This document shows positions 40,342 through 64,000 of a stretch of DNA of 64,000 nucleotides, piece by piece. The notes below the pieces were generated by a model, which saw nothing but the letters and a program-made list of their open reading frames with translations, was not told the DNA's origin and made no database searches. Numbering within the stretch: position 1 is the first letter of the stretch; every line of letters starts with the position of its first letter. The stretch covers positions 32,001 through 96,000 of IMG/VR virus record IMGVR_UViG_3300030104_004642; one strand, written 5' to 3'. This DNA is from a virus. Made by a program: the position numbers and the translations under genes.

Positions 40342-40344
40342 TGA

Positions 40345-41817: not shown

Positions 41818-41842
41818 TTTATATAAAAAGGTCTCTTAGTAT

Positions 41843-42016: not shown

Positions 42017-42348
42017 TAGTTAGCAGTCTCCAACACTGATAGAAGAACTTTGAGAGATGAATTAGCACCAGCACTTGCCTTAATGGAGTCATTGGTTTGA
42101 AGAACCAATTTACCATCAAGGGGCACATAAGCATCACTCACAGGCACAGAAGCATCTTTAATAATCTCAGTGGTTGTGCTACTTCTCACATGAGACATGG
42201 TGAATGTGGTTGCTGATGAAGCAACATTGGTTACATGAGCATATAATACAATCCCTGTATAACCTGTGGGTGCTGTATATACTGTTTGATCTGAGGTTGT
42301 TAAAACAATAGTCTCTGTCTTAAACCTATTGAGTGCTAATTGTGCCAT
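42016..42348 (-). CDS. Small virion structural protein
   Basis: YTAP.G..IVL...V.N, GKLVL...D.I all-beta pattern typical of cyanophage fibre-associated proteins. Confidence 0.7.
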   Translation of the reverse strand: MAQLALNRFKTETIVLTTSDQTVYTAPTGYTGIVLYAHVTNVASSATTFTMSHVRSSTTTEIIKDASVPVSDAYVPLDGKLVLQTNDSIKASAGANSSLKVLLSVLETAN

Positions 42349-46272: not shown

Positions 46273-46314
46273 TCTATTAGTAATAATACTTTGGGATTTC
46301 TCTCCCTTGATGTA

Positions 46315-46689
46315 TTATTTATCAGGATTATTATTCTTCAATAACTTTTGCAATTCTGCTGTTGAACCAACAAATAAGGCATTGTTAACTGTGGTTGGAC
46401 CCTTGCTTACTCTTTCTTCTTCTACATCTTTTAACTTCTGTTGTAAGGTCATCAGTTTATCAGTTGCATCAGCAACATTCTTGATCAACTGACCAGCAAC
46501 CTCATATGCCCTTGGCATCTCACTCTCCTGTGCAAGTTCTAAGATACCATTAATTGCTTCCTGACCCTTTTCAATGATTGAATATAGGTTACCCCTGGTG
46601 TATTCATAATCTTTTTCTACATCATCCTTTGTCAGATGAGCAGGTTTTTCTTTACCAGGAGTCACATCTATAATATTATCTTCTGTCAT
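46315..46689 (-). CDS. g16: Terminase small subunit (gp16)
   Basis: DYEYTRGNL, PRAYEVAGQL, NNALFVGSTAEL. Confidence 0.95.
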   Translation of the reverse strand: MTEDNIIDVTPGKEKPAHLTKDDVEKDYEYTRGNLYSIIEKGQEAINGILELAQESEMPRAYEVAGQLIKNVADATDKLMTLQQKLKDVEEERVSKGPTTVNNALFVGSTAELQKLLKNNNPDK

Positions 46690-47696
46690 CAGAAGGTGCT
46701 CCCATCAAAACCAAAGTTATCTCCAATATCAATGAAGTTAGCATCTGCTGCCTCAATACCAAGGACAGATGCTCCCAGAACATGACTGGCAGCAGTGGTT
46801 TTATCTTGACCCCTCTTAACTGTGAGTTTGTTTCCATTAATTTTGTCAACAAACATCTCCTCCTCACCAACAGTAACATATTGCTTGACAGTAACTGCTG
46901 ATCCATCATCAACAGTGATGACAGTTTCTGTGGTATCAACATCCTCCGCAAGTTGGGTCAAAACATTGCCATTGTAATCTTTGGTTGCTCTTGGAACAAC
47001 ACTATATGTGACATCCCTTTGATATGATTGACCAGAGGATGTTCTCTGACCAGCAACATATCCAACTTGTACCTTCTTAATGACATCACTGGATACATCA
47101 GAGATAGGACCATAAAGATTGGTCTTAGCAACAAATCTGAGTGTATAGACAAGTGCTCTTCTTGTATCAAAATTACCCTCATAATCATCCTCCATTGAAA
47201 CACTTTCCAACTGGACAGGAACATTGACTACCTCTTTCAGACTACCAAGTAATTTGATAGGAAGGGTATATGATGGTTGAAAGTATGGGAGGATCTGTTC
47301 AATAGTTTGAAGTGCATCATCATTTAACTTAGTCATAATTGACAATTCAAAACCCATATTGTATGGGACAGGCATAAAGACCTTCTTGGTCTTTGTGCCA
47401 TTATCAGTTACAGGATGAAATGCTTGTGTTTGAGTTGCCTTTCTTGTTGGGTCATATTGAAGATCAGTAAATTCAAATGACATCCTTGGTAGAGTCATTT
47501 GAACTGGTTTATTCAGATCTGCTTCCTGCTGCAATCTGGCGAGGAACTTCTGGGTAGGACCATATGCAAGAGGAACCTTAATGACACTATAAGTATCATT
47601 ATTTGCATCCTTCTTATGGATCTCAATCCCATTGAAGAGAGATCCAAATGCTATGATTACTGATCTGAAGATCTCATTGTAAAAATGCTCAAACAT
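46689..47696 (-). CDS. g15: Tail sheath stabilizer/terminator (gp15)
   Basis: FGSLFN, VPLAYGP.QKFL, LPRMSFE, EQILPYFQP. Confidence 0.95.
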   Translation of the reverse strand: MFEHFYNEIFRSVIIAFGSLFNGIEIHKKDANNDTYSVIKVPLAYGPTQKFLARLQQEADLNKPVQMTLPRMSFEFTDLQYDPTRKATQTQAFHPVTDNGTKTKKVFMPVPYNMGFELSIMTKLNDDALQTIEQILPYFQPSYTLPIKLLGSLKEVVNVPVQLESVSMEDDYEGNFDTRRALVYTLRFVAKTNLYGPISDVSSDVIKKVQVGYVAGQRTSSGQSYQRDVTYSVVPRATKDYNGNVLTQLAEDVDTTETVITVDDGSAVTVKQYVTVGEEEMFVDKINGNKLTVKRGQDKTTAASHVLGASVLGIEAADANFIDIGDNFGFDGSTF

Positions 47697-47720
47697 TTTA
47701 TTACTACTTTTTATTATTTA

Positions 47721-49103
47721 TTAGGGCATACCAAAGGGGTTAGTTTTGGTGAAGTCAATTATGTCATCTGCCAATATTTCAATGTTGTCATTGTCAGCAA
47801 ATCCACTAACCACATCATCCTTGTTGAGGACTCTAAGAGCAAATGATGCTCCAGAATCTTGACCAATAATATTCTCTCCAACAAGGAATGAACCATCAAC
47901 AATTGATACCTGAAGGGTGTTATTGACAGCATCCCATTCTTTAACCCTAGCAGTGGTTCCAGATACAGATCCTGTTACAATCTCATTAAAGACATAACTT
48001 CCAGTGGCAGCACTGGCAGGAGGAGAATCAAATGTGATTGTTGGATTGGTTGTATATCCACTTCCAGGATTTGTAATATATGCTGCTATGACAGTGCCAG
48101 CAGCATTGATTCTTGCAACACCAGAGGCAGTCACTCCTACACCTGGTGATGAGAATGTAATGTCTGGATGTGATGTATAACCAGAACCAGCATTGGTAAT
48201 AGTAATAGAAGCAGCACTAACATCAGTTGACAGTCCAGTGGTTGCTGCTGCCCCACCACCTCCACCACCAGTGAAGACAATTGATGGAGCAACTGTATAA
48301 CCAGCACCAGCATTAGACAGTAATACTGCCATCACAGAACCATTCTTGCTTCCAGTGCAGTTAACAAAATCTGTTGATAGTGAGGCAATACCAACAGCAG
48401 TGACACCACCTGAGGGGGCAGATGAGAATCCAACTGTTGGTGCAGTGGCATAACCACCACCCATATTGGTTATATTGACAGAGGTAATAGTACCAGTTGC
48501 TGTTGATGCTGTTCCTGCTGCTGTTATAGACTGTCCAATCAGGGTAAGGGTCTGTATATAACCAATCTGCTCAATCTCATCATCAATGGTCTCTACACCA
48601 GTATCAATAACCTCATCCTCATATCTGTAAAGTTGAAGACTCAGTGTGTAGACATAATTCTTTTGTAGTTGATAGAATGGTTGCTCATGCTCAACATAGT
48701 TAATCTCAAACAATCTATCACCAAGTGGGAAGTAGACCAGATCACCCTCCTTTGGTCTGGTTGCTAACTCAATGTTGGGAATATTTTTGATTAGTGGTGT
48801 AATATATCTTTCATATCTGTCCCTTGATATAACCAGTTTAAGATCATCCTGATTTTCAATACCAAACTTGGATAACAAGGTTCCTTGTCCACCATATCCC
48901 TCATAACTATCAAGATATGCTTCTAATGGATAAGCATTATCAAATTCTGATTGAATAACTTCCCTTATGACAGTATTTTTTGTCACATACCTTCTGGGGA
49001 TATAGTAAATCTCAATACCATACATCTTCAACTGTTCGTTGACTAAACTCTGTATGAGATTTTGCTCTGACTTTTGACTATTGAGAAAGTATGGATTTAA
49101 CAT
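47721..49103 (-). CDS. g14: Neck protein gp14 with inserted G.GY repeat region
   Basis: YYIPR, SKFG, RPKEGDLVYFP, FYQL, NPFG. Confidence 0.93.
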   Translation of the reverse strand: MLNPYFLNSQKSEQNLIQSLVNEQLKMYGIEIYYIPRRYVTKNTVIREVIQSEFDNAYPLEAYLDSYEGYGGQGTLLSKFGIENQDDLKLVISRDRYERYITPLIKNIPNIELATRPKEGDLVYFPLGDRLFEINYVEHEQPFYQLQKNYVYTLSLQLYRYEDEVIDTGVETIDDEIEQIGYIQTLTLIGQSITAAGTASTATGTITSVNITNMGGGYATAPTVGFSSAPSGGVTAVGIASLSTDFVNCTGSKNGSVMAVLLSNAGAGYTVAPSIVFTGGGGGGAAATTGLSTDVSAASITITNAGSGYTSHPDITFSSPGVGVTASGVARINAAGTVIAAYITNPGSGYTTNPTITFDSPPASAATGSYVFNEIVTGSVSGTTARVKEWDAVNNTLQVSIVDGSFLVGENIIGQDSGASFALRVLNKDDVVSGFADNDNIEILADDIIDFTKTNPFGMP

Positions 49104-49104
49104 A

Positions 49105-49968
49105 TCAACCTATCAGATCCAGTGGTGGGAGTTCATATCTACTCAACATCTCAACCTTGATTTCATCAAGTTCCCTTTGAGCATCATCATAAAGTTGTCT
49201 GCCATTAAACTCAACACCACCAGGCAATTTCACACCTGTAAATTTGATCAAGTTTTGACCCCACTGCCTCTTGATTAGTGAAGTGAGATATCTCTTGAGA
49301 AATACATCATTATAAACCTTCGTATAATCATTTGGATTGAGTGCCCTGTAAGCCTCAATGATAATAAACTCATCCTCCTTTATGTTATCCCAATCTACAT
49401 CAAGATACAATCTATCCTGTCTGATGTTATATCTAATTCTTTTATGAGTATTCAGCAGGAAGTCCATTGTCTCAAGATAACTCATGGACATGGAGTATGA
49501 GAGCAAATCAGTGCTTCCAAAGTAGTAAATATCATTCAAGAACAATTGGTACTTGAAACTAAACATATTAGAACTACTTGCTGCCTGAGCATCATCATAT
49601 TTAAATATTCTCTCAATGCCTATGACTTGAGGTGGAACTTGAATGTAGTTACTATTTTCATAAAAAGCAAAATCTGTAGAATCCCCTCCTATTGTGGTGC
49701 TTACTGTAGTTGAAGTAATACCAGTTTGAGTGGTGGCACTTGATGCTCCTGGTGGTCTTGCTTTTCCCCTTTCTACATCAGCAGCAGTAATTTGATATTT
49801 AAGAAATGTCTTTTCTACACCATCATAATGTCTCTCATTATAAAACTGAATGGCATCATCCATCAAGTCTTGAACTTGTTCTTCTGCGACATTAATTTCT
49901 AAGACAGGGGCACCCAACTGTCTTAAACAATAATCTATCAATTCTTGTCTTGAGGAAGGTTGTGCCAT
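49105..49968 (-). CDS. g13: Neck protein gp13
   Basis: YCLRQLGAPVLEINV, HYDG, KRQWGQNLIKF.GVKLPGG. Confidence 0.96.
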   Translation of the reverse strand: MAQPSSRQELIDYCLRQLGAPVLEINVAEEQVQDLMDDAIQFYNERHYDGVEKTFLKYQITAADVERGKARPPGASSATTQTGITSTTVSTTIGGDSTDFAFYENSNYIQVPPQVIGIERIFKYDDAQAASSSNMFSFKYQLFLNDIYYFGSTDLLSYSMSMSYLETMDFLLNTHKRIRYNIRQDRLYLDVDWDNIKEDEFIIIEAYRALNPNDYTKVYNDVFLKRYLTSLIKRQWGQNLIKFTGVKLPGGVEFNGRQLYDDAQRELDEIKVEMLSRYELPPLDLIG

Positions 49969-49996
49969 TATACACTATATCCTTTTCTATATTTAG

Positions 49997-50380
49997 TTAG
50001 ATGGAGAGACCTCCTTCCACCACTACATTTCCAGATGCCAATTTGAAAACAGTTCCTGCTGAACCTACAGCATTGATGTCAAAATAATATCTACCTGGAT
50101 TTAAAGAAGAAGTAATAGTATCAGTAAGGGAGATATTAAATTCACCATTAGCAGCAGATGTGATACCACTTGTGAATTCTGTGATTCCTCCACTTGATGC
50201 CCCTATTGCTACTGATTTTTTGATACCTGCCTTAATTGTGAAAACAGACAGGTCAAAAACTGCTTTACTTTCTTGCTTTACTGCAAATGTTGTCTTAAAA
50301 TCAGCACCCTGTAAAATGGTAAGATTCACGCCATAAGCAGTTTGTGAATCAGGGTTAAAAGTGATTGTGTTGTTAGCCAT
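49997..50380 (-). CDS. Virion structural protein (Ig/BppU-like)
   Basis: NL.I.QGADF, ISLT...T..L..GRYY.D pattern. Confidence 0.65.
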   Translation of the reverse strand: MANNTITFNPDSQTAYGVNLTILQGADFKTTFAVKQESKAVFDLSVFTIKAGIKKSVAIGASSGGITEFTSGITSAANGEFNISLTDTITSSLNPGRYYFDINAVGSAGTVFKLASGNVVVEGGLSI

Positions 50381-50594
50381 TGATTACTGCTTTTAACATT
50401 GATTTGATTTCATCTAAATCACCCTTTAAATCATCTACTTTTTTTTCAAGGGAGTCAACTCTTTCCTTATCAGATAATTGTTTCTCCCTATTTTTTATGT
50501 ATGCTTCAAACTCATTTTTATCTGTGTTGATAATAGCATTATTGCTTTTATCCCTTGATAAATTTTTGTTTCCATTAACAGGTACAAATGTCAT
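50373..50594 (-). CDS. Small coiled-coil protein
   Basis: V.G..NL.RD...AIIN.D followed by a coiled coil. Confidence 0.7.
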   Translation of the reverse strand: MTFVPVNGNKNLSRDKSNNAIINTDKNEFEAYIKNREKQLSDKERVDSLEKKVDDLKGDLDEIKSMLKAVING

Positions 50595-53500
50595 GCCAGT
50601 GCTATTGCTCTTAGGTTTCTAAATTGAGGAACAATTGCCTGGTTGGTTGAAGTACCAATCAATTTAAGTCTGAAAGACTTAAATGGTGGCAGACTGTCCA
50701 TGGTAAATTTATATTCAGTGAAATCATTAATAGCAGGTGTTTGAGTCAGATTGTCATTCTTCTCCTTAGGAAGATCTGGTGTTCCATTAGAGGCAGCAGG
50801 ATTAATAACCCTGCCAAACTGATCAATATTATTAATACCAGGGAATGGAATAAATTTAGTTTCAGCAGCACTTACATCCTGATCAAGGGCATAGAACATT
50901 CTGACATCACTTGATGTTGAAATATAACCATCAATGAACACTTTCAATGATGTTGCTGGATTTTCAAGTGTAATGTTCTTGGTAACATAGATCATGCTGT
51001 TTGGATCATTTGGAATTCCAACAACCCTTGGATCAGTAGCAAAGTTAGTGATAGGTCCATCAACCCTGTTAGACACAAAGATAACAGAGGAGTGGTTCAA
51101 ATCAATCATTGGAGAAATTCTCTTATCATATGTAAGCATATCAAGGTTAAGAGTAAATGACTTACCACCTGGAAGTGTTGTAAGATAGTTTTGTTGATTT
51201 ACCTCAGAGGCAACCATCCTTTGTGTGGTAAAGTAGTTCTTCTTATTGAACTGAACATCCTCAAATCCCTGATCAACATAGGATACCTCTCTACCACTTA
51301 CAGAAGTTTCAGAAACTGTTCTTGCAGAGGCAAGGACAAATGATCCCTCTGGTGATGTTGATGTGACACTGGGAACAATCAGTGAGTAGGGGATATTATA
51401 TGTTCCCTTAGCACCTCTTGCTGAGGCACCATCAAGGACAAAGTTCTCAACAGGAATAAATGTGCCACCAATACTTGTTCTATTGGTCCCATTGCCATTA
51501 TCAGACATATCAAGCTTGATATGATAGTGATCAATGCCAATTGGATCAGCTTTGGTAACCAAAGAAAGATCATGAACTGTATTGATTCTTCTCAGAGAGA
51601 CATTAGAAAATTCATACTTTCTAACAACCTCATTAGTTCCATAAGTGGCAGCATTTCCTTCTACTGCCCTGGCAATTCCTGTAAGTGAACCAGATGTACC
51701 AGATCCAGGTGTAACTCCATCATAAGAAATAATCTCAGTACCAATTTGAACATATCCAGGGTTAGTATTTGAAACACCCACATTTTCAAATGTATCAAAT
51801 CCAGCAGTGTTAGCAATAGAAATTGCTCCTGTGCTTGATTTTGGATAATCAGTAAGGAGGAGGGTTGGTTCCTCAACTGATTTTAGACCAGACAGTTTTA
51901 CTCTATTAGTATTAGAGTACATTCCATGATTTCTTTGATAGATCTTGAGGTGTAGACCATCCTCAAGAATAGTGGTATCAGTAGGAATAACAGCACCCCC
52001 AACACCAGCATTAAGAGCTACCCTTGTGCCACCAGTTGAATCATATTCCAGGAAATCATTAGCATTAGTGCTAAACTCACCTTGAACATTACTAACAATC
52101 AATCTATTATTTGCTGTGATGATGCCAACTGTCAACTTCATTCCATCACCAAGTTCCTCTGTTCCAAATGCAAGAGGAGCAAAGACATCACCTAAAACAA
52201 CATTGGTTCCACCAGCATTAATGGTTGCTCCAATGGCAATACCATCCTTAATATGAAGATCAGCAGTTACATCTGACCCTCTTCCTGTCAGGGCAGTTAA
52301 AGCAACACCAGTAAATGTTAGTTCACCAGATTGTGGTGTAAATCCAATACCAGGATTAGTGATTGTAAGATCACCAGTTGCAATACCTGTAAACTGCTCA
52401 AGAATACCAGTAGCACCAGTGTTCTGTTGAGTGACCCTATTGCCAGGTACTAATGGGTAGGATACACTGATTTGATTTACAGTTGTACCAATACCAACAC
52501 TTGCAGTTCTTGAAAGTGCCTGAACACCACCAGAACGAATTTGCTCATTCTTCTTATCAAGATTGGGGTTATAGAACTGAACATTACCAGATCCAACAAA
52601 GTCTGCTCTGTGAAGAACAAACTTCATATCTTCATACTGACTTGGAGTCCATACAGTTGCATTCTGTGACTTGAACAATGAACCCAAAAGTGGTTGCTCA
52701 GTAACCAGAACTCTACCTTGCTCAGTAGCAAGAGTTGTCACATCTGCTTCACCAAGTCTGGAGATCCAAAGGTTGTAAGTAGTGGTATCAGCCATAACAA
52801 CCAAAGCATAATCACGACCAGAGGAAAGATAAACAGGTGACTCAAATCTGAATGTTGTAACAGCAGTTCCATCATCAGATACATTTACATCATCAGGATC
52901 CAAGGTTACTTCAGAGAAAGCCAAGATCTTTTGATTTGGTGTGCCAAGGGTGGTCTCCCTAATTTCAATTGAGACTGGAAGTTGAGTATCCTTAGTTTGG
53001 AAGAACAGATCAATCTTAGTAGCATAAATTCCTTTCTTAGAGTCAATCTTGAAAGTTTGTGCTAAGGGGTCACCTCTCCAAACTGGCGCTGGTGGTGGTG
53101 GAGGGGGAGGAGTTGGTCTAAGTGTTCTACTATTGATAATATCAAAGTTGACATCAGAATCTAATTCTTGCTGCTCAGCATCCACATCTGAAGTGGTTAC
53201 CCTGGCATTTCTAAGTGAAAGGGTAACCTCTTCTGTTGTATCAATATCACCCTGTGAGAAGAAGATTTCTTGAGCAGAGGTTGTAGTTGTGCCTTGAATC
53301 AGGTTATTAACACTACTACTTGACAGTTTAAATACGTTTCTTCCAGTATTAAACTCAGCAAAATCTTCTTCCTCAGGACCAGGAACATTGAAGGAACCAA
53401 TTAGAGTACCAACCCTATCAGTTTGTAAATTGATGCCCTGAACACTTGCCTCAGCACCACTTGATTGACCCCTGAGGATCATACCAGTCTCAATATTTCC

Positions 53501-56500
53501 AGAGAACTCAGGATTTTCCTCTGAGGCAAGACTTGCAGTATCAATATTCAATATAGAGGATTCAGTTCCGTATGTAGAAGCAACATTTGTGCCTCTAAGA
53601 TATGGATTGCTATCATAGAAGTCAGTGGGATTGTTATAAGCACCATACTTATGATTTGCCTGAGCAACTCTTGCTGTAAATGTTACATCTGACTGACCAA
53701 CTGGTGTCCCTTGGATAGTTTCACCAACAATGAAAGTGCCACTGTTCATTGTGATTTGAGTTAGTTTGGGAGTACATCTCAAAGTAACAGGACTGTTATC
53801 AAAGAAAGCAAATACTGTTGTATTTGGTTTCATTCTTGTGGCAGTAAATTCAATATTTCTCTCCCTCATCTTATTAGCAATTGCTCTGCTAATAACCCTG
53901 GATCCAAGAGAAGCAGCCTCAGTTAATACCTCATTAATGGTTTGTTGAGTACCAGTTCTATTCTGCTCAATAGTAACTGAACCTTCAATGGTTGTTGAAT
54001 TGATAGTTGATAGTTGAGCATTTCTTCCACTAAGACCTAAATCAGCAGTGGATCTACCAGTTCTAGCTGCTGCAGCAGCAAATGTTTCATTCTGAGTGGA
54101 TCCAGTTAGATCAAAATTGATTCCAGTAGTTTCCCAGGAGTCCCAAAGAACAGGTGATACACCAGTTCTAAGTCCATCATCACCATCTTGGGTTTCTATA
54201 TTCAGAGCCTGAGCAATACTTTCAAAATTACCCTCAATTACAACATCACCAACTCCTTCATTAACCTCTGGTTCTTTGGTGCTTACCCAAACATCAGTGG
54301 TTGGATTAAGTTTTACAGAACCCTCATAGAAATCAATCAGGAAGGGAGTTACATTCTCAACTCTTGTTCCATAAGGTTGAGTAATTTCAGCAACCTCAGA
54401 GTAGTTTAGACTGATAACATCACCAGTTCTCCTTACACCCTGTCCTGAAAGGGCAGCAAACCTGGAGTCAGTGTTAGCATCTGTTTCAGTCCCTATACCA
54501 GCAATGGTGCTATTACCAACTTGAAGATTAACTGCTGTTGAGTAGTGAGCAGGTCTAAGAACCTTGTTCTTTGGATCAATACTATTTCTAATACCAATAG
54601 AAACATCCTGAGGTGTGAATGATGAGAAGTTGTCAATGAAAATGCCAGACTTAAATCTATTAAGACCATTGACATCAGAGACAAAAGTATTGAGAGTATT
54701 CTGCTCAAGCATATTCAATGATGTATAATATTCAAGGTTCTTGATTCTGGTATCAAGTTTTGCGATATCAGTCATCTGATATCTCTTATGCTGAATAAAC
54801 TTAACCTTTGAATCTTTTACAGAGAACAGATATGGTGGACTGTAAATATTTGCAATGTTCAAAGAACCTGGAAGAACATCAGGCAGTTCTGGAATATCTG
54901 CTGGAGCACCAAGGGTAACTTGAATATCACCATCCCTGGTCAAATAAACCCTGTCTGCTCTTCCTAAGTAATAATCATACTTGAGGATAGTATTCTGATC
55001 ACTTGAAATGATGTGCTTAGAACTATGATTTCCATTATTAAAAGTTCTACCATCAAATTCAAATGGAGATGCAGCACCAGCAGTCACTGAATAATCACTT
55101 ACCCTTGGTCTAACATCAATGAGGTCAGAATTTCTAAATCCATTAACAGATTGAACATCATTACCATAATCACAATTAATGTAAGAAGCTGCTGTTGTAA
55201 AATCTCCAGTATCATTTGGATCATAATCCAGATTTCCATAGTAAACAAGAAGTTTCTTAGATGGTGTTGCTACACCACTATGTCTAACAATTCTTGACAG
55301 ATCATATATTGTCTTTCTTTGACCATTATCAAAACTATAATTCTTTGTGATATTAGGAGAACCAACTGTTAGATCAGATACATTTGCTTGTACTCCTGAT
55401 TTGGCAAAGATAATGATTTCATTGTCCCTGAAAACTTTATTGTTCAGGTAAGCAAATTTAATTTGAGTTGTGCCTGGTTTTTCAAGAATGATTGCCTTTG
55501 CCTGTGACAGATTACCAGTAATTGTATCACCAATCACAACATCAGTTGTGTTAGCATTTGGACCTGTCATATTAGAACAGGTCATCATTGGAGGTAGTGG
55601 TTGATTTACATCAACTGATTCAAATACTGCATGAACCCTGTAAACATCAGGAACATTCAGTGAGATAATTTCATCCTGCACCCTTGTTCCAAATGGGAAT
55701 GATCCATATGTAAGACCATCATTCAATGTTGTACCTGCTAAACCAACAGCATCAGTACCTGATGCTGGATCATTTGATTTGTCAACAATTATAGCCTTAA
55801 CAATATTCTTTCTCTTAATTTTAGAGGTAATTTTGTTCTGAATAACCTCACCAATCAGAATTGCTTTACCATCATTACTGTGACTCAATCCTTGAATATT
55901 GAGAGTTGTTCTATCAGAGTTAAATGTGAACTTGTCAGCAGTAAGATTTTGTGTTACACCATCATCACTCTGAAGTGAATATCTTTCTGGGTCAAATGAT
56001 GCCCAGGTCTGAGTCAATACATCATCAACAGGAATAGTTCCAATATCACCATTAGTGCTGATTGTTACTTCTCTTGTAATTCTAAAACTGGATACTGAAT
56101 TGAGTGTATCTACACTTCTTACATTATTATGTGGAAGGACACTAAACAGGGTATCATTTCCAGCAATGTTGCCACTGTTTGAGGTTGTTTGAAGTTTTGT
56201 AGTTACAATCCTCAGATCATTTACATCAAAGTTTGCTGTTGGGAGTTCACCATCAACCACACCAGTGATGGTTGTAACACCAGAGATAGCAAAACTAGTT
56301 GCTCCAACAGAGACAATCCTTGCCATTGATGGATCAAGTTTACCAGGTCTCTCAAAAGTGATGAGATTACCAGCTGTGACAACACCTACAAATGAATTTC
56401 CTGATAGTGCTGCTGAGGTAACTGTTGAAACACCAGCACTGTCAGCAGAGATTTTTGCATTATCAAGAGTGAAAGATTTCTGTTGTTTTATGTCAGCAGA

Positions 56501-58180
56501 AAATGTTTTTGAGATGCCAACATTACCAAATACTGATTTTACATCACCAAGAGAATATTTTTTATGATCAACAAGTGTTCTACTAATTGTAGGATAACCA
56601 TTAAATATGAGTTGCTCACCTCTTCTAAATTCACCCTGCACACTCATAAGGGTGTGACCTGCACCAGTAGTGGCAAACTTAGTAAAACCAGTTGCACCAC
56701 TTTCCTGACCCTCAACTAATGTTGACTTAACAAGTGTAGCATCAATGTTTAGGGTTATTTCTTCTTTTAGTTCAATATCAAATAAGGAAAGATCCCAGGT
56801 GTTTAACGCTGAATTAGCAACATCATAGGCACCCTGTTCCAGGGCAAAATCATAAATCCTTGCTTGACCAATTTCTGCTCCATCAGCAGTGAATTTATTT
56901 TCTCCAACCCTTTGATCCCTTAGAGAAAGGGTATTAGTAGTGTTAAATCCAATAGGAGCACTACCAGTTACATTATTGACTGCTAATGTGGGTGCAAAAT
57001 CAAAACTTACACCAGTATTACCAACTGATCTTGTTGTTCTTGGTTTTGGAACATCAATAAATTGGGGTGATTTAATTTCAGCTTCATAACCCCTTACATA
57101 TGCTCTACCAGGAGATACTTGAACAATCATCAAGTCATCTGAGGGAACATTACCACTTTGAGTTGTCTGACCAGTTGTATAAACACCCCTATTACCCTCC
57201 AGATTGTTTAAACTCTCTTTGAGTTTAGTCTGCATCTCAGTAATATAGTAGTGACCAGATTCTTCAAATGTTCTTTTTGCTAATTCATTACCAAGTACAT
57301 TATACTTGGTCTGATTATTGATAGCATTCTTCAGTTTACCATTGAAGACCTCAGCAATTTGCACAAATCCCTGAGTGTCAAAGTCACCAACTGGTTTCTT
57401 TGCTAATGTGGCAGTAATTTTAAGCCTATCAGCACCTGGTGCTGTAAAATTATTAAAACCACTGGCATTATCATACAGTGACCTATCATCATCTGCTGTA
57501 ACAATCTTTTCTTCAATTTGGAAACCTATTCTATAACTAGAATTGGTCAGATATTGATCAAGAATCAGAATTTGACTATCAACAGTGACAAAATTTCCTC
57601 TCAGGTAGAAAATACCTGGACTTTGGATAAATGCAGTTCCAGTAGAGGCAGAACCAGAAGTAACTGTATTGGCAAAACCCTCACCAGCAGCAATAAATGA
57701 ACTTCCAAATGCTAATGCACTTTCTGATGTAAGAATCTCATCATCAAAGAAAGTTTCACTTGAATTTCCATCACTACTTGAATCTTCATAGTTCAGATAA
57801 AGGGTATAGTTACCCAATTCAGACTCTTGATTAGTAATAAATGTTACTACTCTTGCTGAAACACCAGATGTTCTTCCTGTGATCTTTTTTCCAATAAGAT
57901 CACTGAGATAAAGATTTACAGGAACACCCAAGAACTCAGGTTGAATCTGAATGCTTTGGAATTTTGATTTGTATGATGAATTTCCAGGAATGACAACACT
58001 ACCCTCTTTAAAAAGGTTATCACCCATTGCTTCAATCTGCCCTTGTAGGATAGATTGTATATTGTTTAACTCTCTTGCCTGAATTGGGTAGGCAGGTTTG
58101 AACAGTACCTTATTAAAATTTTTAGTTGCGTCAAAATCATCAAAATAAGGAGCAACATTGAGATTAGTTTCCTGTGGCAT
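50591..58180 (-). CDS. Very large virion/baseplate-associated protein (DUF4815/VrlC-like)
   Basis: NLNVAPYFDDF, ARELN.IQS, APGADRLK, RTFEESG, R.KNLEYYTSL, DPLAQTF. Confidence 0.85.
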   Translation of the reverse strand: MPQETNLNVAPYFDDFDATKNFNKVLFKPAYPIQARELNNIQSILQGQIEAMGDNLFKEGSVVIPGNSSYKSKFQSIQIQPEFLGVPVNLYLSDLIGKKITGRTSGVSARVVTFITNQESELGNYTLYLNYEDSSSDGNSSETFFDDEILTSESALAFGSSFIAAGEGFANTVTSGSASTGTAFIQSPGIFYLRGNFVTVDSQILILDQYLTNSSYRIGFQIEEKIVTADDDRSLYDNASGFNNFTAPGADRLKITATLAKKPVGDFDTQGFVQIAEVFNGKLKNAINNQTKYNVLGNELAKRTFEESGHYYITEMQTKLKESLNNLEGNRGVYTTGQTTQSGNVPSDDLMIVQVSPGRAYVRGYEAEIKSPQFIDVPKPRTTRSVGNTGVSFDFAPTLAVNNVTGSAPIGFNTTNTLSLRDQRVGENKFTADGAEIGQARIYDFALEQGAYDVANSALNTWDLSLFDIELKEEITLNIDATLVKSTLVEGQESGATGFTKFATTGAGHTLMSVQGEFRRGEQLIFNGYPTISRTLVDHKKYSLGDVKSVFGNVGISKTFSADIKQQKSFTLDNAKISADSAGVSTVTSAALSGNSFVGVVTAGNLITFERPGKLDPSMARIVSVGATSFAISGVTTITGVVDGELPTANFDVNDLRIVTTKLQTTSNSGNIAGNDTLFSVLPHNNVRSVDTLNSVSSFRITREVTISTNGDIGTIPVDDVLTQTWASFDPERYSLQSDDGVTQNLTADKFTFNSDRTTLNIQGLSHSNDGKAILIGEVIQNKITSKIKRKNIVKAIIVDKSNDPASGTDAVGLAGTTLNDGLTYGSFPFGTRVQDEIISLNVPDVYRVHAVFESVDVNQPLPPMMTCSNMTGPNANTTDVVIGDTITGNLSQAKAIILEKPGTTQIKFAYLNNKVFRDNEIIIFAKSGVQANVSDLTVGSPNITKNYSFDNGQRKTIYDLSRIVRHSGVATPSKKLLVYYGNLDYDPNDTGDFTTAASYINCDYGNDVQSVNGFRNSDLIDVRPRVSDYSVTAGAASPFEFDGRTFNNGNHSSKHIISSDQNTILKYDYYLGRADRVYLTRDGDIQVTLGAPADIPELPDVLPGSLNIANIYSPPYLFSVKDSKVKFIQHKRYQMTDIAKLDTRIKNLEYYTSLNMLEQNTLNTFVSDVNGLNRFKSGIFIDNFSSFTPQDVSIGIRNSIDPKNKVLRPAHYSTAVNLQVGNSTIAGIGTETDANTDSRFAALSGQGVRRTGDVISLNYSEVAEITQPYGTRVENVTPFLIDFYEGSVKLNPTTDVWVSTKEPEVNEGVGDVVIEGNFESIAQALNIETQDGDDGLRTGVSPVLWDSWETTGINFDLTGSTQNETFAAAAARTGRSTADLGLSGRNAQLSTINSTTIEGSVTIEQNRTGTQQTINEVLTEAASLGSRVISRAIANKMRERNIEFTATRMKPNTTVFAFFDNSPVTLRCTPKLTQITMNSGTFIVGETIQGTPVGQSDVTFTARVAQANHKYGAYNNPTDFYDSNPYLRGTNVASTYGTESSILNIDTASLASEENPEFSGNIETGMILRGQSSGAEASVQGINLQTDRVGTLIGSFNVPGPEEEDFAEFNTGRNVFKLSSSSVNNLIQGTTTTSAQEIFFSQGDIDTTEEVTLSLRNARVTTSDVDAEQQELDSDVNFDIINSRTLRPTPPPPPPPAPVWRGDPLAQTFKIDSKKGIYATKIDLFFQTKDTQLPVSIEIRETTLGTPNQKILAFSEVTLDPDDVNVSDDGTAVTTFRFESPVYLSSGRDYALVVMADTTTYNLWISRLGEADVTTLATEQGRVLVTEQPLLGSLFKSQNATVWTPSQYEDMKFVLHRADFVGSGNVQFYNPNLDKKNEQIRSGGVQALSRTASVGIGTTVNQISVSYPLVPGNRVTQQNTGATGILEQFTGIATGDLTITNPGIGFTPQSGELTFTGVALTALTGRGSDVTADLHIKDGIAIGATINAGGTNVVLGDVFAPLAFGTEELGDGMKLTVGIITANNRLIVSNVQGEFSTNANDFLEYDSTGGTRVALNAGVGGAVIPTDTTILEDGLHLKIYQRNHGMYSNTNRVKLSGLKSVEEPTLLLTDYPKSSTGAISIANTAGFDTFENVGVSNTNPGYVQIGTEIISYDGVTPGSGTSGSLTGIARAVEGNAATYGTNEVVRKYEFSNVSLRRINTVHDLSLVTKADPIGIDHYHIKLDMSDNGNGTNRTSIGGTFIPVENFVLDGASARGAKGTYNIPYSLIVPSVTSTSPEGSFVLASARTVSETSVSGREVSYVDQGFEDVQFNKKNYFTTQRMVASEVNQQNYLTTLPGGKSFTLNLDMLTYDKRISPMIDLNHSSVIFVSNRVDGPITNFATDPRVVGIPNDPNSMIYVTKNITLENPATSLKVFIDGYISTSSDVRMFYALDQDVSAAETKFIPFPGINNIDQFGRVINPAASNGTPDLPKEKNDNLTQTPAINDFTEYKFTMDSLPPFKSFRLKLIGTSTNQAIVPQFRNLRAIALA

Positions 58181-58186
58181 GATTTC

Positions 58187-59743
58187 TTAGAATTGCAAAA
58201 TGATTTTGACGTCTTCTTTCTGGGTTGTAGACCTTGTTACTGGTGGTCTATTGTCAACATATATGATATTGCCAGAATATTTTTTGGACTCAGGATTCGC
58301 AACTCCCATTGTAAATTCCTGACCCAGATTATATGTCTTACTATTTATTACAGTGCTTATACCTGTAAATGAAGTGCTGATCTGTAAAGTGGCAGACCCA
58401 CCAATAATGTCTACACCTCCTCCTGTGTTAGTCTTAGCATCTCCATCAAATAGTATGTTATTGAAACCATATTCTGGACTTACATTTTGTGTTCCATCAG
58501 AGTTAAAACCTACATTCGTCCTATCCTGCCAATATTTCAATACTCCTGTTGTCTGGTCATATGAAACAACTCTACCAACAGCAGTTGACCCAACTCCAAT
58601 TGTTTGAGTGATTTCAGAGTCAGGACTATACACAACAGAACTATAACCTGTTCCTGTCAACCTAAGGGCATAAGTTGCTGCTGCCTTGTCTGATGATAAA
58701 AGACTGGTTGAACCAAACTGTTGTGGATTCTCCACAAGTCCAACCCTGGCAAATTGATTACCAGTGATAAAATCTGGATTATCAATATCATTATCATATC
58801 TTGCATAAGTAAGAACATTAAATGCTCCTAACTCAGTGTAAATATCATGACCATGACCACCTGGTGGGGGAATAATCACATTAAAAACTGGTGCTGTTGT
58901 ACCAGTCAAACCTTTCTCTGAAAGATCAATTGTTCCAAAAGTATAACCTGAACCACCTTGAGTAACCACAACTGATTGAACCTTACTGTCAGCATTAATG
59001 ACAACAGTTGCTTTACCATCAGATCCATCACCTTTAATTGACACATTAGTGTAGGTATTGGCATTACCCAATCCAGCACCTCTGTTTCTGATTGTGATAA
59101 CTTTGAGTTGTCCACTGGAAGCAGCATTAGCTTTTACAGTGCTTGTATCAGTTGTATTGCCCCAATCATTTGGGACTGGGATGTAATTAGTTGAATCAAA
59201 TTTTATGGCATCACTTGGTTTGATAGTATAGAGATACTTCCAAATATATCCATCACCACTGGAACCTGCTGCTCTGGGTTCTAAATCAGTAAATGTTGGT
59301 TCATCAAGTGAGGGACTTCCTTTAAAATTGTTTTCTGGAAGGGCATTATTATAAAGACAAATATAAACTCTAAAATCACTATTCATTACAAAGAAATTTG
59401 CTGAATAGATGTTAAATGAACCAGATGGTTGTGAGGGGTTTGCCCTTGTAATATCATTTCTCCACATATCATAGATGTTGCCAGAAGACCAAGTATTCTT
59501 GGTAACAACCTGTGCCACATCACCAGAATTTACCTTTTTCAAGGCAATCATTGTGTCCCAATAATCATTGGTTTGATCTAAACTATCTTTGGGGGATGGG
59601 GGAGAAGCCTCCCAAGTAGATGAATAATCAGTCGCATTGGGAAGACCAATGAATGTATAATAAGAATTTGAGGAGGATTGAACTCCTGCCACAAAGTTCT
59701 TAGCATTCAAAATACGAAGCTGATCAGTTATAATCGCAGCCAT
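58187..59743 (-). CDS. g8: Baseplate wedge subunit (gp8)
   Basis: AIITDQLRI.NA, VYICL.N, DGYIWKYLYTI, SGNIIYVDNR...QKEDVKIILQF. Confidence 0.92.
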   Translation of the reverse strand: MAAIITDQLRILNAKNFVAGVQSSSNSYYTFIGLPNATDYSSTWEASPPSPKDSLDQTNDYWDTMIALKKVNSGDVAQVVTKNTWSSGNIYDMWRNDITRANPSQPSGSFNIYSANFFVMNSDFRVYICLYNNALPENNFKGSPSLDEPTFTDLEPRAAGSSGDGYIWKYLYTIKPSDAIKFDSTNYIPVPNDWGNTTDTSTVKANAASSGQLKVITIRNRGAGLGNANTYTNVSIKGDGSDGKATVVINADSKVQSVVVTQGGSGYTFGTIDLSEKGLTGTTAPVFNVIIPPPGGHGHDIYTELGAFNVLTYARYDNDIDNPDFITGNQFARVGLVENPQQFGSTSLLSSDKAAATYALRLTGTGYSSVVYSPDSEITQTIGVGSTAVGRVVSYDQTTGVLKYWQDRTNVGFNSDGTQNVSPEYGFNNILFDGDAKTNTGGGVDIIGGSATLQISTSFTGISTVINSKTYNLGQEFTMGVANPESKKYSGNIIYVDNRPPVTRSTTQKEDVKIILQF

Positions 59744-59763
59744 TTTATTAGGACTTTTTTGTT

Positions 59764-59771
59764 TATTTATA
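59764..59771 (-). promoter_or_regulatory. Late promoter TATAAATA upstream of g8; further (TA)TAAATA copies at 5322, 15952, 21703, 22950, 26892, 27158, 28841, 31791, 41840, 46316, 47715 and 49990
   Basis: gp55-type -10 element in short intergenic gaps, often overlapping the upstream stop codon. Confidence 0.8.
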
Positions 59772-59776
59772 GGGGA

Positions 59777-62700
59777 TTAGATATAGTTTTTAAATTTCAG
59801 TGATTCAGTTCTATTGACAAGAGCAGATGTGGATATACCACTTACACCATCCTGACCATAGAAGTCAAAAGTTTGTGGATTCACTCTTTCAGCAAATTCA
59901 ATCTTACCCCAACTAAAACTTCCTTCATCAAAACTTGTAGTGTGAGCAATACCTGGACCAAATGTGTCAACATTACAAACAATTCTTCTAACTGATGTCA
60001 CAACACCAACATTGGTTTCATGAACAACTTCAACTCTCTCTGTTGTTGCTGTGGCAACCTGATAAACACAATCTAAGAATGTTGTAGCAACAGAAACAGG
60101 TGAAGCAAATGTACTACCTATTGATACATGAGTATTTTGAATTACAACATAGTCACCAGCAGACAGGGTGCTTACTGTGATAGCAGTTCCTACAAGAGAG
60201 GCATCTCTCATAATGGAATTGATTGGAATATAGGTGTCAAAGAACAATTGTGGGTTGGAACTACTACCAGTGCTACCAAGACCAACTATGACTCCACTAT
60301 CACCAGTGTAGGAATTGACATTAATTGTTTCATGAGTTAATTTTGGTTCCTCAATCAATACAAGTGGAGCAGCAGAATAACCTGCACCACCATCAGTTAC
60401 AGTCAGTGAGGTAACAGATCCATTAGTAATTGTTGCTATACCAGTTGCTCTTGTGGTGGTTCCAGCAATTGAAACCTCAGGAGCAGCAGCATATCCTTGA
60501 CCAGCATTTGTAATAGTAAGGGCAGTGATAGTTCCTGCTGTGCTTACTGTGGCAGTTGCTGTAGCACCTTCAACTGTATTTTGTGAAGTAAGAGTAATAT
60601 TGTCTTGGAATGCCCTATCATTTGTTTCATTATTGCCATCAAACAAGGGTCTTACAGAATCAACATAAGCAACTGTTGAACCAATGCCTACTGATGATGT
60701 AAGGAATGAGGTTGGGAAGATATTAGGTTCATACTTGACCCTATCCTTACCAACAAATTTACCATTAATTTTTCTATCAATGGTCTGCTTACACCATTTC
60801 ACTGGTCTGTTGATGGTCTTATCAATTGCTAAACCAGGACCATCATAGAAGTTGGTTTTAGATGCATCAACTGTTGTGATACCAGTGATTACTCTCTCAT
60901 TCTGATTAAGATTGGGTGTTTGATCATTTTCAACATCAGCAGATAGTTCAACAGAGTCACCAATCTTAATAGTTTCAAGAACATCTCTGAAAACAACATC
61001 AGTTGCACCAGCACCCTTGTAAAATAGGATTCTTGATGTATCACCCTCTGGAATACCTGATCCTGGACCCTTAGGTGCTTCATTGAATGTGATCAGACTT
61101 CCACCCTCAAATGTGTAGGATACACCAGGTACTTGAAGAATATCATTGATAAACACCAAGATTGTTTGATTAACTTCAATATTTGAATCTCTTGCTGCCA
61201 CAATTGAAACTGGTTCACCTTGTAATGTGAGTGGGAATACTCTATTGATTCCATTAAAATTATCATCAATTCTGTCAAGAACTTGGAACTCACCTGGTGA
61301 GAAAGCATTAAATGAATCACTGTAAATATCTTGAATAGTGATTTGGAATTCATTAAATGAAATTGAGGAATCAAGAGGAATACCTGTAGTGCCACCAGTG
61401 GGAACAGTCAGTATTTCATTTTTTCCAAATCCAAAACCAAAGTTATTAATTTCAAATTCAATTACATTTGAACCCTGACCAACCTTTATATCAACAGTAG
61501 CACTTTGACCAACACCTGTTGTGGAACTTGATGAGTATTCAAGAGGGATACCTTTATAACTCAGTGGTTGATCAATAACAACAATTGGAGGATTAGTAGT
61601 TGTATATCCAGATCCAGGATTTGTTATGTTAATGCTTGTAATATTACCATTAGTCACAACTGCCTCACCAACATGGGTGAGAACAGGAATAACACCATCA
61701 TATGTCTGTACACCCACATTGTAAGCAGTAACAACACCAGTCCTATAACCAGAACCACTGTTTCCAATACTGACTGATTGAATAGATCCAGTGAGTGAGA
61801 CAACAGCAGTACCACCAGCACCAACAAGGGGTTGATATCCAGATCCTTCTGAGGAACCAACTGAAACAATCATTCCACCAATAGGAAGATTGCCAAGGTT
61901 TTGATCATAACCAGTAGCAGTGCCAATATTACTTCCAGTAAATTGAGCAGTTGTTACACCAGCACTTTCAAAGTTCTGGTATTCTCCTTCCTCAAGAACC
62001 TGAACACCCTGTGGTGATTGGAATATATTATTGACAAGAACAATTGTATTTGATGTAATACCAGTTACATCTGCCCCATTGTTCTTCAGAATAAATTCAC
62101 TTGTAATACCTGTGAACTGTTCAGATACATCATCAAAGACAAAGTTATCATTATATGTCTCAACAGTTCCACCTGTTGCACCTCTCTTGGTGAATACTCT
62201 TCCACTAAATGTAGATTTGGTAGAAATGTCAGTATAATCCCTTTCATCAGGTGCTGCTGTGGTTGTTGAAAGTGGAACATTTCCAAATGGAGCACTTACA
62301 AAATTAATTGTATTACCACTGATGTTGAAATTACCAACAAACTTCTCAATAGTTGCTCCCCCTGAGTGAGGGGCAATTGTAGAACCAAGGATGGGTCTCT
62401 CAACAAAAATAGTTGTACCAGTTCCAGTAGAGCTGGTAACCCTCATAAATTCATCATCTATCTTAATGATGTCATTTGCTGAAATTGTAGTAATTCCACT
62501 TGTTTTGAAGTCAGTGTCAAATACAATACCATTAGTGAGAGATGCAGTAATTCCAGTTCTTGTAAGAGGTGCCTGAATCATGTTATCAACAGAAACAAGC
62601 ATTTTAGTATTCTGTTTAGTGGCAGTAATGAAATGTGAATTTCCAACACCTACACCAGAGAACACAATTCTATTAGGATTAACCTGTAAAGCATCAGCAG

Positions 62701-64000
62701 CAGAGGTGCAGAATCCAATTTTAAAATCATTGACCTTACTTACAAAAAGATCTGTGGGCAACAGGGTTGTTGAACCAACACTTCCACCAAAATCTGTTGA
62801 AACAATCTCTATTCTTTGATCAGTGCCAGTAACTGTGTACTTGACTGCCTCACCACTCTGGAAGAAGTGATTGGAAGATATAATTACATTATCATCAGTA
62901 TTAACACCAGTAACACCATTAAACTGTCTTGTAAAGATTGGATCACCTTTGTGCAACAGATTGAAATTTGTTCTTATATCAGATTTTGTACCAAAATAGT
63001 TACCAACTTGTGTCTTAAAGAGACCATCATTGTAATCAATTTGTGACAAGGTATTAGATGGCTGAATTTCTCTTAGATCAACAAAGAAGTTCTTAACTTC
63101 AACAGCAATACCTGGATTAGGTGTATAAACAACATTTACAAAGTTACCAGATGTTGTAACACCAACAGTTCCAAGACCAGCATTTGTAGCAACATTGGCA
63201 AATTCAACATATTGTTGAGTTGGTATGGTAAGTGCATTCAATACACCAAGTTCAAATATTTCATGATGATTGTTTGATGTATCCTCAACAGTTATTACCT
63301 GATAAGAAGCAGCATACTTCTCATCAACAGATGCTGTGTCATAACTGCTTATAATATGAGCAGTTGGTGATCCAGAGGAGGCAATTGATGTATATCCACT
63401 ACCAACCCTGGCAGTGGTCATTGAGGTAAATCCAGTGAATGAAGTACCCCTAACAGCAGAGACAACCTGACTATATGATGTTGCTGCAATCCCTGCACTT
63501 GGATGGAATTTGAGAACTACATTGACACCACTTATCTCAGCACTGTAGGTTCCAATACCACCAAGATACAATGAAGAGTTAGTTTCATCAATATTGTTAT
63601 ATTCAACAATTGAACAATCAGTATCATTATGAATGATATTCAGTTCAGCAAAATGATGATCATCACCATGGGTAAGAAGGTTTAGAACCTTCATTGATCT
63701 ATAACTGGTTCCCACAGAAACAATGTTAGTGATAGTGCCAGTTGGTACATTGACCTCCTGGGTTTCAAATTCAATGATATCACCAAATGATGATGTACCA
63801 GCACCTACCAACTCAGGACCAATGGCAAAGGCAAAGGATGAAACAAAGTAATTATTAACTGTAAATTTGACTGGATGGAACTCAAAATCAAATTCACCTG
63901 TACCTGCTGTAATATCAAAGAATCCCAGATCTGGATGTGTGTGTAACTTGGCATAACTGGTCATGTATGCCAATTCATCATCAACAACAGCAGTTGATAC
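59777..64000 (-). CDS. Large baseplate wedge/virion protein (gp7 position), 5' end beyond the window
   Basis: Frame is open to the right edge; FDDVSEQFTG, G.GY repeats, FSWGKI near the C-terminus; directly upstream of g8. Confidence 0.8.
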   Translation of the reverse strand, partial: VSTAVVDDELAYMTSYAKLHTHPDLGFFDITAGTGEFDFEFHPVKFTVNNYFVSSFAFAIGPELVGAGTSSFGDIIEFETQEVNVPTGTITNIVSVGTSYRSMKVLNLLTHGDDHHFAELNIIHNDTDCSIVEYNNIDETNSSLYLGGIGTYSAEISGVNVVLKFHPSAGIAATSYSQVVSAVRGTSFTGFTSMTTARVGSGYTSIASSGSPTAHIISSYDTASVDEKYAASYQVITVEDTSNNHHEIFELGVLNALTIPTQQYVEFANVATNAGLGTVGVTTSGNFVNVVYTPNPGIAVEVKNFFVDLREIQPSNTLSQIDYNDGLFKTQVGNYFGTKSDIRTNFNLLHKGDPIFTRQFNGVTGVNTDDNVIISSNHFFQSGEAVKYTVTGTDQRIEIVSTDFGGSVGSTTLLPTDLFVSKVNDFKIGFCTSAADALQVNPNRIVFSGVGVGNSHFITATKQNTKMLVSVDNMIQAPLTRTGITASLTNGIVFDTDFKTSGITTISANDIIKIDDEFMRVTSSTGTGTTIFVERPILGSTIAPHSGGATIEKFVGNFNISGNTINFVSAPFGNVPLSTTTAAPDERDYTDISTKSTFSGRVFTKRGATGGTVETYNDNFVFDDVSEQFTGITSEFILKNNGADVTGITSNTIVLVNNIFQSPQGVQVLEEGEYQNFESAGVTTAQFTGSNIGTATGYDQNLGNLPIGGMIVSVGSSEGSGYQPLVGAGGTAVVSLTGSIQSVSIGNSGSGYRTGVVTAYNVGVQTYDGVIPVLTHVGEAVVTNGNITSINITNPGSGYTTTNPPIVVIDQPLSYKGIPLEYSSSSTTGVGQSATVDIKVGQGSNVIEFEINNFGFGFGKNEILTVPTGGTTGIPLDSSISFNEFQITIQDIYSDSFNAFSPGEFQVLDRIDDNFNGINRVFPLTLQGEPVSIVAARDSNIEVNQTILVFINDILQVPGVSYTFEGGSLITFNEAPKGPGSGIPEGDTSRILFYKGAGATDVVFRDVLETIKIGDSVELSADVENDQTPNLNQNERVITGITTVDASKTNFYDGPGLAIDKTINRPVKWCKQTIDRKINGKFVGKDRVKYEPNIFPTSFLTSSVGIGSTVAYVDSVRPLFDGNNETNDRAFQDNITLTSQNTVEGATATATVSTAGTITALTITNAGQGYAAAPEVSIAGTTTRATGIATITNGSVTSLTVTDGGAGYSAAPLVLIEEPKLTHETINVNSYTGDSGVIVGLGSTGSSSNPQLFFDTYIPINSIMRDASLVGTAITVSTLSAGDYVVIQNTHVSIGSTFASPVSVATTFLDCVYQVATATTERVEVVHETNVGVVTSVRRIVCNVDTFGPGIAHTTSFDEGSFSWGKIEFAERVNPQTFDFYGQDGVSGISTSALVNRTESLKFKNYI

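Follow-up and report, generated by a model that had tools for sequence, protein, structure and literature searches.

We analyzed a stretch of 64,000 nucleotides (hereafter the window) that corresponds to bases 32001-96000 of a 115,002-bp IMG/VR viral contig, whose completeness is about 60% according to CheckV. Nearly all genes of the contig are carried on the minus strand. The major capsid protein (MCP) encoded by g23 shares 87% identity with its counterpart in Synechococcus phage S-B05 and 82% with that in Prochlorococcus phage P-TIM68, indicating that the contig belongs to a T4-like cyanomyovirus (Kyanoviridae). The subject of this report is the severe shortage of the CG dinucleotide (CpG) in this DNA and its relation to a predicted N4-cytosine DNA methyltransferase (hereafter the methylase), which is encoded on the contig to the left of the window next to a protein that we call P0002. 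The features are listed in Table 1.

Table 1. Features of the window and of the neighboring part of the contig (aa, amino acids; o/e, observed-to-expected ratio of CpG).
Feature	Position	Strand	Remarks
CpG-depleted T4-like cyanomyovirus segment	window 1..64000		296 CG, o/e 0.122
Most extreme stretch, large baseplate/tail-fibre-type genes	window 42001..64000		25 CG in 22 kb, o/e 0.032
2529-aa structural gene, 45-49% identical to P-TIM68 and S-B05 giant genes	window 50591..58180	-	
3994-aa gene, in-window part; extends to contig 103761	window 59777..64000	-	whole 12-kb gene: 11 CG
g23, major capsid protein	window 23016..24467	-	11 CG, o/e 0.135
D12-class (Dam-like) N6-adenine DNA methyltransferase	window 7308..8216	-	P-TIM68, 62% identity
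Predicted beta-class SPPY N4-cytosine DNA methyltransferase, 256 aa	contig 27665-28435	-	3.6-4.3 kb left of window base 1
P0002, 421 aa	contig 28468-29733 (L188:8468-9733)	-	2.3-3.5 kb left of window

The original prediction for this DNA had described an extreme loss of CpG, and exact counting bears the description out. For the right arm, it had estimated that base composition would give hundreds of CG, and the region 50591-64000 contains 14 against 478 expected from base composition (o/e 0.029), and 200 shuffles of the region gave 475±19 with a minimum of 435. It had placed about 8 CG in the 7.6-kb gene starting at 50591, none in 59777-64000 and about 11 in g23, and the counts are 8, 0 and 11, where 273, 148 and 81 are expected, respectively. 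GpC, CpA and TpG, which it had called abundant, occur 357, 1216 and 1077 times in 50591-64000. The CpG o/e of the whole contig is 0.124, compared with 0.122 for the whole window, and along the contig it lies at 0.2-0.3 in conserved core genes and at 0-0.05 in the large structural genes at the right. The o/e values of TpG and CpA are 1.33 and 1.42 here, compared with about 1.22 and 1.08 in relatives.

The deficit lies at the level of the dinucleotide. When we separated the codon phases, the CpG o/e was 0.22 at codon positions 1-2, 0.08 at positions 2-3 and 0.107 at the junction between position 3 and the next codon, and it was 0.18 between genes. As had been predicted, AGA and AGG make up 87% of the Arg codons and the NCG codons only 0-2% of their families. 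We then shuffled synonymous codons 200 times, preserving the protein and the codon usage gene by gene, and obtained 1735±30 C|G codon junctions (minimum 1644), compared with 199 in the actual sequence. The deficit thus remains at codon junctions, where synonymous codon bias does not explain it, in agreement with the earlier claim that more than the choice of Arg codons is involved. CpG o/e also climbs with protein conservation, from about 0.08 in poorly conserved genes to 0.17 in genes with 80% or more identity to relatives, and the conserved core genes hold about twice the CpGs of lineage-specific genes in all three codon classes (Spearman 0.46). Recombination with CpG-normal relatives or selection at the codon level could be responsible for the higher CpG content of the conserved core genes.

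Comparison with related cyanomyoviruses, which had been proposed as a check, revealed that the deficit goes far beyond that of the relatives and is specific to a lineage. The median CpG o/e of 80 related IMG/VR loci collected by a capsid-protein search was 0.64, against 0.12 for the contig; three of these loci (L001, L002 and L017) were below 0.2, and L005, L010 and L019 were at 0.31-0.36. The cultured phage P-TIM68 shows a CpG o/e of 0.111 over its whole 197 kb and has zero CCGG, while S-B05, which is nearer to the contig than P-TIM68 in most genes, shows 0.50-0.52. In the capsid tree, the rows with low or intermediate CpG are all members of a single clade of 11 with good support. This clade also contains S-B05 and two further rows of normal CpG, nested next to the lineage of the window, indicating that the state has changed at least twice. 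Mimicry of the host composition was ruled out, because 31 Prochlorococcus loci have a CpG o/e of 0.46-0.64 (around 0.5), TpG and CpA of about 1.0-1.1, that is, no excess, and no loss of CG flanked by a pyrimidine and a purine (YCGR). In the literature searched, we found no report of CpG depletion in cyanophages, of the composition of P-TIM68, or of a link between a methylase and cyanophage CpG depletion.

The extent of the loss depends on the flanking bases. All 16 NCGN contexts are depleted, including the non-palindromic ones. The RCGY words (GCGC, ACGC/GCGT and ACGT) are retained at 35-62% of their frequency in normal relatives and the mixed contexts at 14-24%, whereas the YCGR words (TCGA, CCGG and CCGA/TCGG) are retained at only 1-4% and stand at 0.01-0.02 in the contig. 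Purely synonymous Y|G junctions follow the same order, the odds ratio being 0.012-0.032 at YCGR and 0.13-0.34 at RCGY, and the order YCGR, mixed, RCGY recurs in every group of depleted loci. TCGA and CCGG are still under-represented after Markov correction for the CpG loss. Damage of dipyrimidines by UV was considered as a cause of the YCGR gradient and dropped, since TC and CC occur at an o/e of 1.13-1.14, without any depletion, and CpG shows no hypermutability (see below). Several words lacking CG are also low in the contig, namely the palindromes AGCT (0.18), GGCC (0.17), CTAG (0.25) and GTAC (0.37) and the pair AGCC/GGCT (0.18); RGCY words and GTAC are avoided more mildly in cyanomyoviruses generally (0.29-0.54 in P-TIM68, S-B05 and the pooled relatives).

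The original prediction regarded the loss of CpG with gain of TpG and CpA as the footprint of 5-methylcytosine (5mC) deamination, and this part of it does not hold. Under such a decay, methylated CG would deaminate faster and turn into TpG and CpA, as in vertebrates and some Mollicutes, and the raised TpG and CpA, the depletion at all codon positions and between genes, and the presence of a cytosine methylase gene in the genome are all in line with it. However, the pattern of substitutions is not. For 14 pairs of closely related depleted loci (87-99% identity), we examined the third positions of synonymous NNY codons with agreeing flanks. The T<->C differences per T site were 0.024 before G and 0.25 before A, C or T, giving a gain-side ratio of 0.095; over three divergence classes this ratio was 0.13, 0.12 and 0.08, while about 1 is expected under hypermutability. 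On the loss side, where hypermutability would call for a many-fold rise, the differences per C site before G relative to elsewhere were 1.6 overall and 1.75-1.93 across the divergence classes. Pairs of normal cyanomyoviruses gave 0.67 on the gain side and 1.33 (range 1.3-2.4) on the loss side, so that CpG sites of the depleted phages are not hypermutable. Four-fold sites in NCR codons agree, with 0.11-0.21 in the depleted pairs against 0.74 in the normal ones. The creation of CpG is about 10-fold rarer than matched T->C changes, and the flux between TpG and CpG is 8-10 times below what a mutation-driven equilibrium needs. For decay to account for the o/e of 0.00-0.03 across 22 kb and for the YCGR odds ratios (0.012-0.03), a rate excess of 30-80 fold would moreover be required. 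No match to the C5 methyltransferase family PF00145 was found in the contig, which is 60% complete, or in the complete P-TIM68 genome, a host enzyme not having been searched for; PF00145 does match in the non-depleted S-B05. In addition, N4-methylcytosine (4mC) deaminates to uracil, which is rapidly removed, and not to thymine (PMC10406627), and CpG is not in deficit in rotifer DNA that bears 4mCpG (PMC8885841). Given the lack of hypermutability at CpG sites and of any C5 methylase match in the contig and P-TIM68, we reject the deamination reading, which we regard as very improbable. The roughly 10-fold suppression of CpG creation at sites that are not hypermutable indicates purifying selection on CG, and we are confident that selection rather than mutation maintains the deficit.

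We compared the gene content of the contig with those of P-TIM68, which is depleted, and S-B05, which is not. Few genes were common to the contig and P-TIM68 alone, and the methylase was among them. The protein matches PF01555 over residues 21-222 with 107.9 bits (cut-off 26.7, E 9.8e-31). Its TSPPYN motif at residues 26-31 precedes FDPYSGSGTT at about residues 188-197, which is the beta-class order with SPPY, a motif characteristic of N4-cytosine enzymes, located N-terminal to the S-adenosylmethionine (SAM) motif, and the methylases of P-TIM68, L207, L221 and L222 show the same arrangement. Judged from its sequence, the gene product is a beta-class SPPY cytosine-N4 DNA methyltransferase. The best solved relative is the catalytic domain of N4CMT from the rotifer Adineta vaga (8S9M/8S9N, E 5.4e-44); residues 15-228 align with the 8S9M chain at 18-240, including the target-recognition region, while the next PDB matches have E values of 2e-12 or weaker and are confined to the C-terminal SAM motif. 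N4CMT writes 4mC at CpG on both strands and prefers (a/c)CG(t/c/a), with symmetric methylation at ACGT, GCGC and ACGC and with ACGG disfavored (PMC10406627). It clusters with phage methylases of unspecified specificity, and its nearest bacterial relatives recognize TCGA and CCSGG (PMC8885841). The likeness to N4CMT suggests that the phage methylase acts on CpG. The earlier suggestion that this lineage methylates CG is therefore retained in one part, because a CG-type N4-cytosine methyltransferase appears to be encoded in the genome, outside the window, and is abandoned as to 5mC and the C5 route; the search for C5 or N4 cytosine methyltransferases elsewhere in the genome, also proposed earlier, yielded the N4 type alone on the contig. 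Just ahead of the methylase lies a strong sigma70-like promoter of its own, of the early type (TTGTCA-17-TATAAT, 11/12, with an upstream TG), and a T4-late TATAAATA is found ahead of P0002 and the 295-aa gene that precedes it.

Presence of the methylase and loss of CpG go together. All 37 IMG/VR loci that carry a copy at least 73% identical to it have a CpG o/e of 0.13-0.41, compared with the median of 0.64 for the loci sampled by MCP. Among 50,697 phage records, a close ortholog was found in P-TIM68 only. The complete and non-depleted S-B05 and G003 yielded no PF01555 gene, and the incomplete G001 has a different one of 335 aa. A search of 401 host-family genomes gave no close homolog, and P0109, a distant homolog, had no relatives in IMG/VR. 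We consider it probable that the selection on CG is causally tied to the phage's own methylase system.

A parallel case in the same virus family points to how such a system might act. The cultured phages S-CAM3 (L237:2001-3271) and S-RIM32 (L238:1986-3256) carry a complete MjaI-type pair, in which an RE_MjaI gene, whose site is CTAG, is directly followed by a PF01555 methylase in the same gene order. The CTAG o/e is 0.11 in S-CAM3 and 0.05 in S-RIM32, whereas the pool has 0.44 and P-TIM68 has 0.97, and the corresponding Markov values are 0.18 and 0.07 against 0.78 in the pool; these two genomes are 4-9 times poorer in CTAG than their relatives. They contain 1 and 0 copies of CCGG, respectively, in about 195 kb each, S-B05 contains 23, and overall CpG is normal in all three. 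Because the carriers of the MjaI-type pair are purged of CTAG, we favor a self-inflicted cause that resembles restriction-modification (R-M). A host enzyme as the agent fits poorly, since a methylase should then relax the selection and relatives without methylase should be purged more, and neither is seen.

In the mechanism that we propose, the phage methylase would mark its own CG as m4CpG early in infection, as the protective half of an R-M-like discrimination between self and host. The destructive half would be a putative nuclease that attacks unmarked CG-centred sites, cuts YCGR best, and thereby hits host DNA, which has a CpG o/e of about 0.5. As the protection of fast-replicating DNA would never be complete, every CG of the phage would be a liability. 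Synonymous changes would eliminate these CGs, above all in the contexts that are cut best. The retention of RCGY coincides with the favored sites of N4CMT and would fit tolerance of the contexts covered by the methylase, on the assumption that the phage enzyme shares this flank preference. We infer that the methylase modifies CG, that it causes the selection on CG and that a partner nuclease exists. The entire chain of selection on CG, the own methylase as its cause and an R-M-like system falls slightly short of an even chance, and the R-M-like version with a partner nuclease is put forward as a tentative possibility. A more detailed picture, in which an early m4CpG methylase and a late, perhaps virion-packaged, YCGR-preferring nuclease of unrecognized fold would be used offensively for self/host discrimination at the level of a dinucleotide, with the P0002 family as the candidate nuclease, with a phage genome recoded by synonymous changes until nearly devoid of CG, and with this lineage as the likely source of rotifer N4CMT, must be called speculative and rather unlikely to be right as a whole.

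P0002 is a nuclease candidate by its position only, and we do not claim it as a nuclease. The gene ends 32 bp before the methylase start on the same strand, and the two are adjacent in about 30 of the 37 loci. P0002 is hypervariable (29-86% identity) among phages whose neighboring methylases are 80-97% identical to each other, with the invariant residues D121, S173-L-K175, E248 and E260, and its profile finds P-TIM68 but not S-B05 or G003. Its AlphaFold (AF2) model has a pLDDT of 89.6 and a pTM of 0.83. The protein atlas gave RE_HpaII (0.87) and RE_HaeIII (0.85), which are weak and serve as leads only, and alignment with an MjaI-type enzyme by hhalign covered only 12 columns (E 0.17). A 687-aa gene that occupies the same genomic slot in S-B05 proved to be unrelated to P0002.

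Several observations weigh against the R-M-like explanation. The 16 members of the P0002 family gave no Pfam match, and the RE_HpaII model (PF09561) did not match either. When the P0002 model was compared with the PDB, the Foldseek E values were above 0.1, and the best VIA match had a Z of 6.0 and covered the N-terminal helices only. Structural relatives of P0002 occur in many cyanomyoviruses (P-TIM68, S-RIM14, S-RIM44, P-HM1, P-SSM3 and S-RIM8), and P-HM1, P-SSM3 and S-RIM8 have no close methylase ortholog, which argues against a role as a restriction enzyme. About 600 CG are left in P-TIM68, so that avoidance alone would provide no immunity. The depleted rows all lie in the one MCP clade of 11, for which about 2 changes are enough, and the association may rest on few evolutionary events. 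A 41%-identical homolog of the methylase occurs in a megaphage with a CpG o/e of 0.90, and a 66%-identical variant (L224:10001-10762) occurs in a phage of normal CpG content (o/e 0.74). To our knowledge, no restriction enzyme that reads bare CG has been described. Other members of the methylase clade are reported to recognize TCGA or CCSGG (PMC8885841). The variant at L224 has a 16-residue insertion directly after SPPYNK and a different gene neighborhood, and TCGA is over-represented in its phage; this copy may be a specificity variant.

The same association and the same evidence for selection would also be expected if the phage methylated CG for some benefit, such as blocking host enzymes or acting on host DNA, while m4CpG on its own DNA was harmful, either through a methylation-dependent (Type IV-like) nuclease of the host or through hindered phage transcription or replication, so that methylatable sites were minimized. 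Such costly marks need no further gene or partner nuclease, and under the early-type promoter of the methylase both host and phage DNA would be marked. The flanking bases speak weakly against them: if the flank preference of N4CMT is shared, the best-methylated contexts should disappear first, yet RCGY is kept best and YCGR is nearly absent. Enzymes of the McrBC type read R-mC and would likewise purge RCG first. We regard this explanation as unlikely. Alternatively, in line with the second option of the original prediction, evasion of a host defense that reads CG sites, the hosts of the clade might carry several nucleases with CG sites, and the phage would shed CG to escape them and methylate the remainder as a second defense. 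Avoidance of short palindromes that lack CG (AGCT, GGCC, CTAG and GTAC), the near absence of CCGG in S-CAM3 and S-RIM32 and its low number in S-B05, all of normal CpG content, and the low TCGA and CCGG after Markov correction are what host restriction would produce. On the other hand, a protecting methylase should relax this selection, yet the depletion accompanies the methylase, and relatives without it keep CpG at about 0.64, CCGG excepted. All 16 NCGN contexts are affected, non-palindromic ones included, CG sites are not avoided in host DNA, and in the 401 host-family genomes we found no homologous methylase that would hint at a cognate host R-M system. Avoidance of host restriction therefore appears improbable to us as the main cause.

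It might also be supposed that the methylase is merely a marker of the clade and that another trait selects against CG, such as some other modification of the DNA, an RNA-level effect or a gene located in the 40% of the genome that the contig lacks. The association has few independent replicates, as the depleted rows are restricted to one MCP clade, the completeness of the contig is only about 60%, and the Dam-like methylase and a 4Fe-4S protein are likewise common to P-TIM68 and were not found in S-B05. However, it would be a striking coincidence that the marker is the closest known relative of a CG-specific enzyme, and CpG is normal in S-B05, which yielded no such methylase and is nested inside the clade. 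We consider such hitch-hiking quite improbable.

The contig thus encodes at least two DNA methylases, the Dam-like and the N4-cytosine type, and GATC is not depleted (o/e 1.20). The Dam-like gene was rejected as an explanation for the CG loss, its product being an adenine enzyme. No counterpart of the Dam-like gene was found in S-B05 in the gene-content comparison. The 4Fe-4S protein (contig 13918-14481, minus strand) has 187 aa and two 4Fe-4S cluster motifs and is 77% identical to the product of a P-TIM68 gene adjoining psbA; no S-B05 counterpart was found. Further to the left, a block of nine genes on the minus strand (contig 5360-12667) has no P-TIM68 homolog, and only its last gene has an S-B05 homolog (41%). 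This block is nearly CpG-free and encodes a PNP_UDP_1 phosphorylase, an NT5C/HAD-like nucleotidase, a nucleotidyl transferase and a methyltransferase (phrog_8156), and it might represent a pathway of nucleotide or sugar modification.

Compared with known systems, the phage methylase resembles N4CMT of the bdelloid A. vaga (PDB 8S9M/8S9N/8S9O) in its PF01555 family, beta-class SPPY motif and aligned recognition region, but it consists of 256 aa without a chromodomain, its action on CpG is predicted, and its genome is purged, while the rotifer genome has no CpG deficit (PMC8885841). The RE_MjaI and PF01555 pairs of S-CAM3, S-RIM32 and S-H9-2 share with it the virus family, the methylase family and an upstream gene on the same strand, and their carrier genomes are purged of their own site (CTAG 0.05-0.11 against 0.44 in the pool). 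The nuclease of those pairs is recognizable (PF09568), and its site is a palindrome of 4 bp. In the present phage, no nuclease signature was seen in the upstream gene, and what is purged is a dinucleotide, with a gradient of loss from YCGR over mixed to RCGY contexts.

Avoidance of palindromes in double-stranded DNA phages is similar in that selection removes short words synonymously, and AGCT, GGCC, GTAC, CTAG, TCGA and CCGG are low here. Classical restriction-site avoidance targets the sites of host enzymes and is weaker in phages with protecting methylases, whereas the present purge spans every NCGN context and accompanies a methylase. Genomes with C5 methylases of CG specificity (M.SssI and M.MpeI in Mollicutes, and the DNMTs of vertebrates) also combine a CG-type methylase, CpG poverty and an excess of TpG and CpA. 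The CpG loss of Mollicutes and vertebrates is attributed to 5mC deamination, while the phage enzyme is predicted to methylate N4, the contig and P-TIM68 yielded no C5 enzyme, and hypermutability of CpG is not seen. The chloroviruses have R-M systems with very short sites (R.CviJI at RGCY and M.CviPI at GpC), in which the methylase is made early and the nuclease late, virion-packaged nucleases degrade host DNA, and a virus-encoded methylase of nearly dinucleotide specificity distinguishes viral from host DNA. Chloroviruses rely on heavy methylation, and we know of no report that they purge the methylated sites; the partner nuclease of the cyanophage, in contrast, is putative only.

A shortage of CpG is commonly taken as a trace left by 5mC deamination. 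Here, a pattern as deep as that of vertebrates is produced by selection in abundant ocean viruses and is linked to an N4-cytosine methylase, and the cultured pair of P-TIM68 and Prochlorococcus MIT9515 permits direct testing. The methylase could serve as a CG-specific 4mC tool. Together with the CTAG case, these results suggest that the gene cargo of a phage can shape its word usage as strongly as that of its host, which bears on the prediction of hosts from k-mers.

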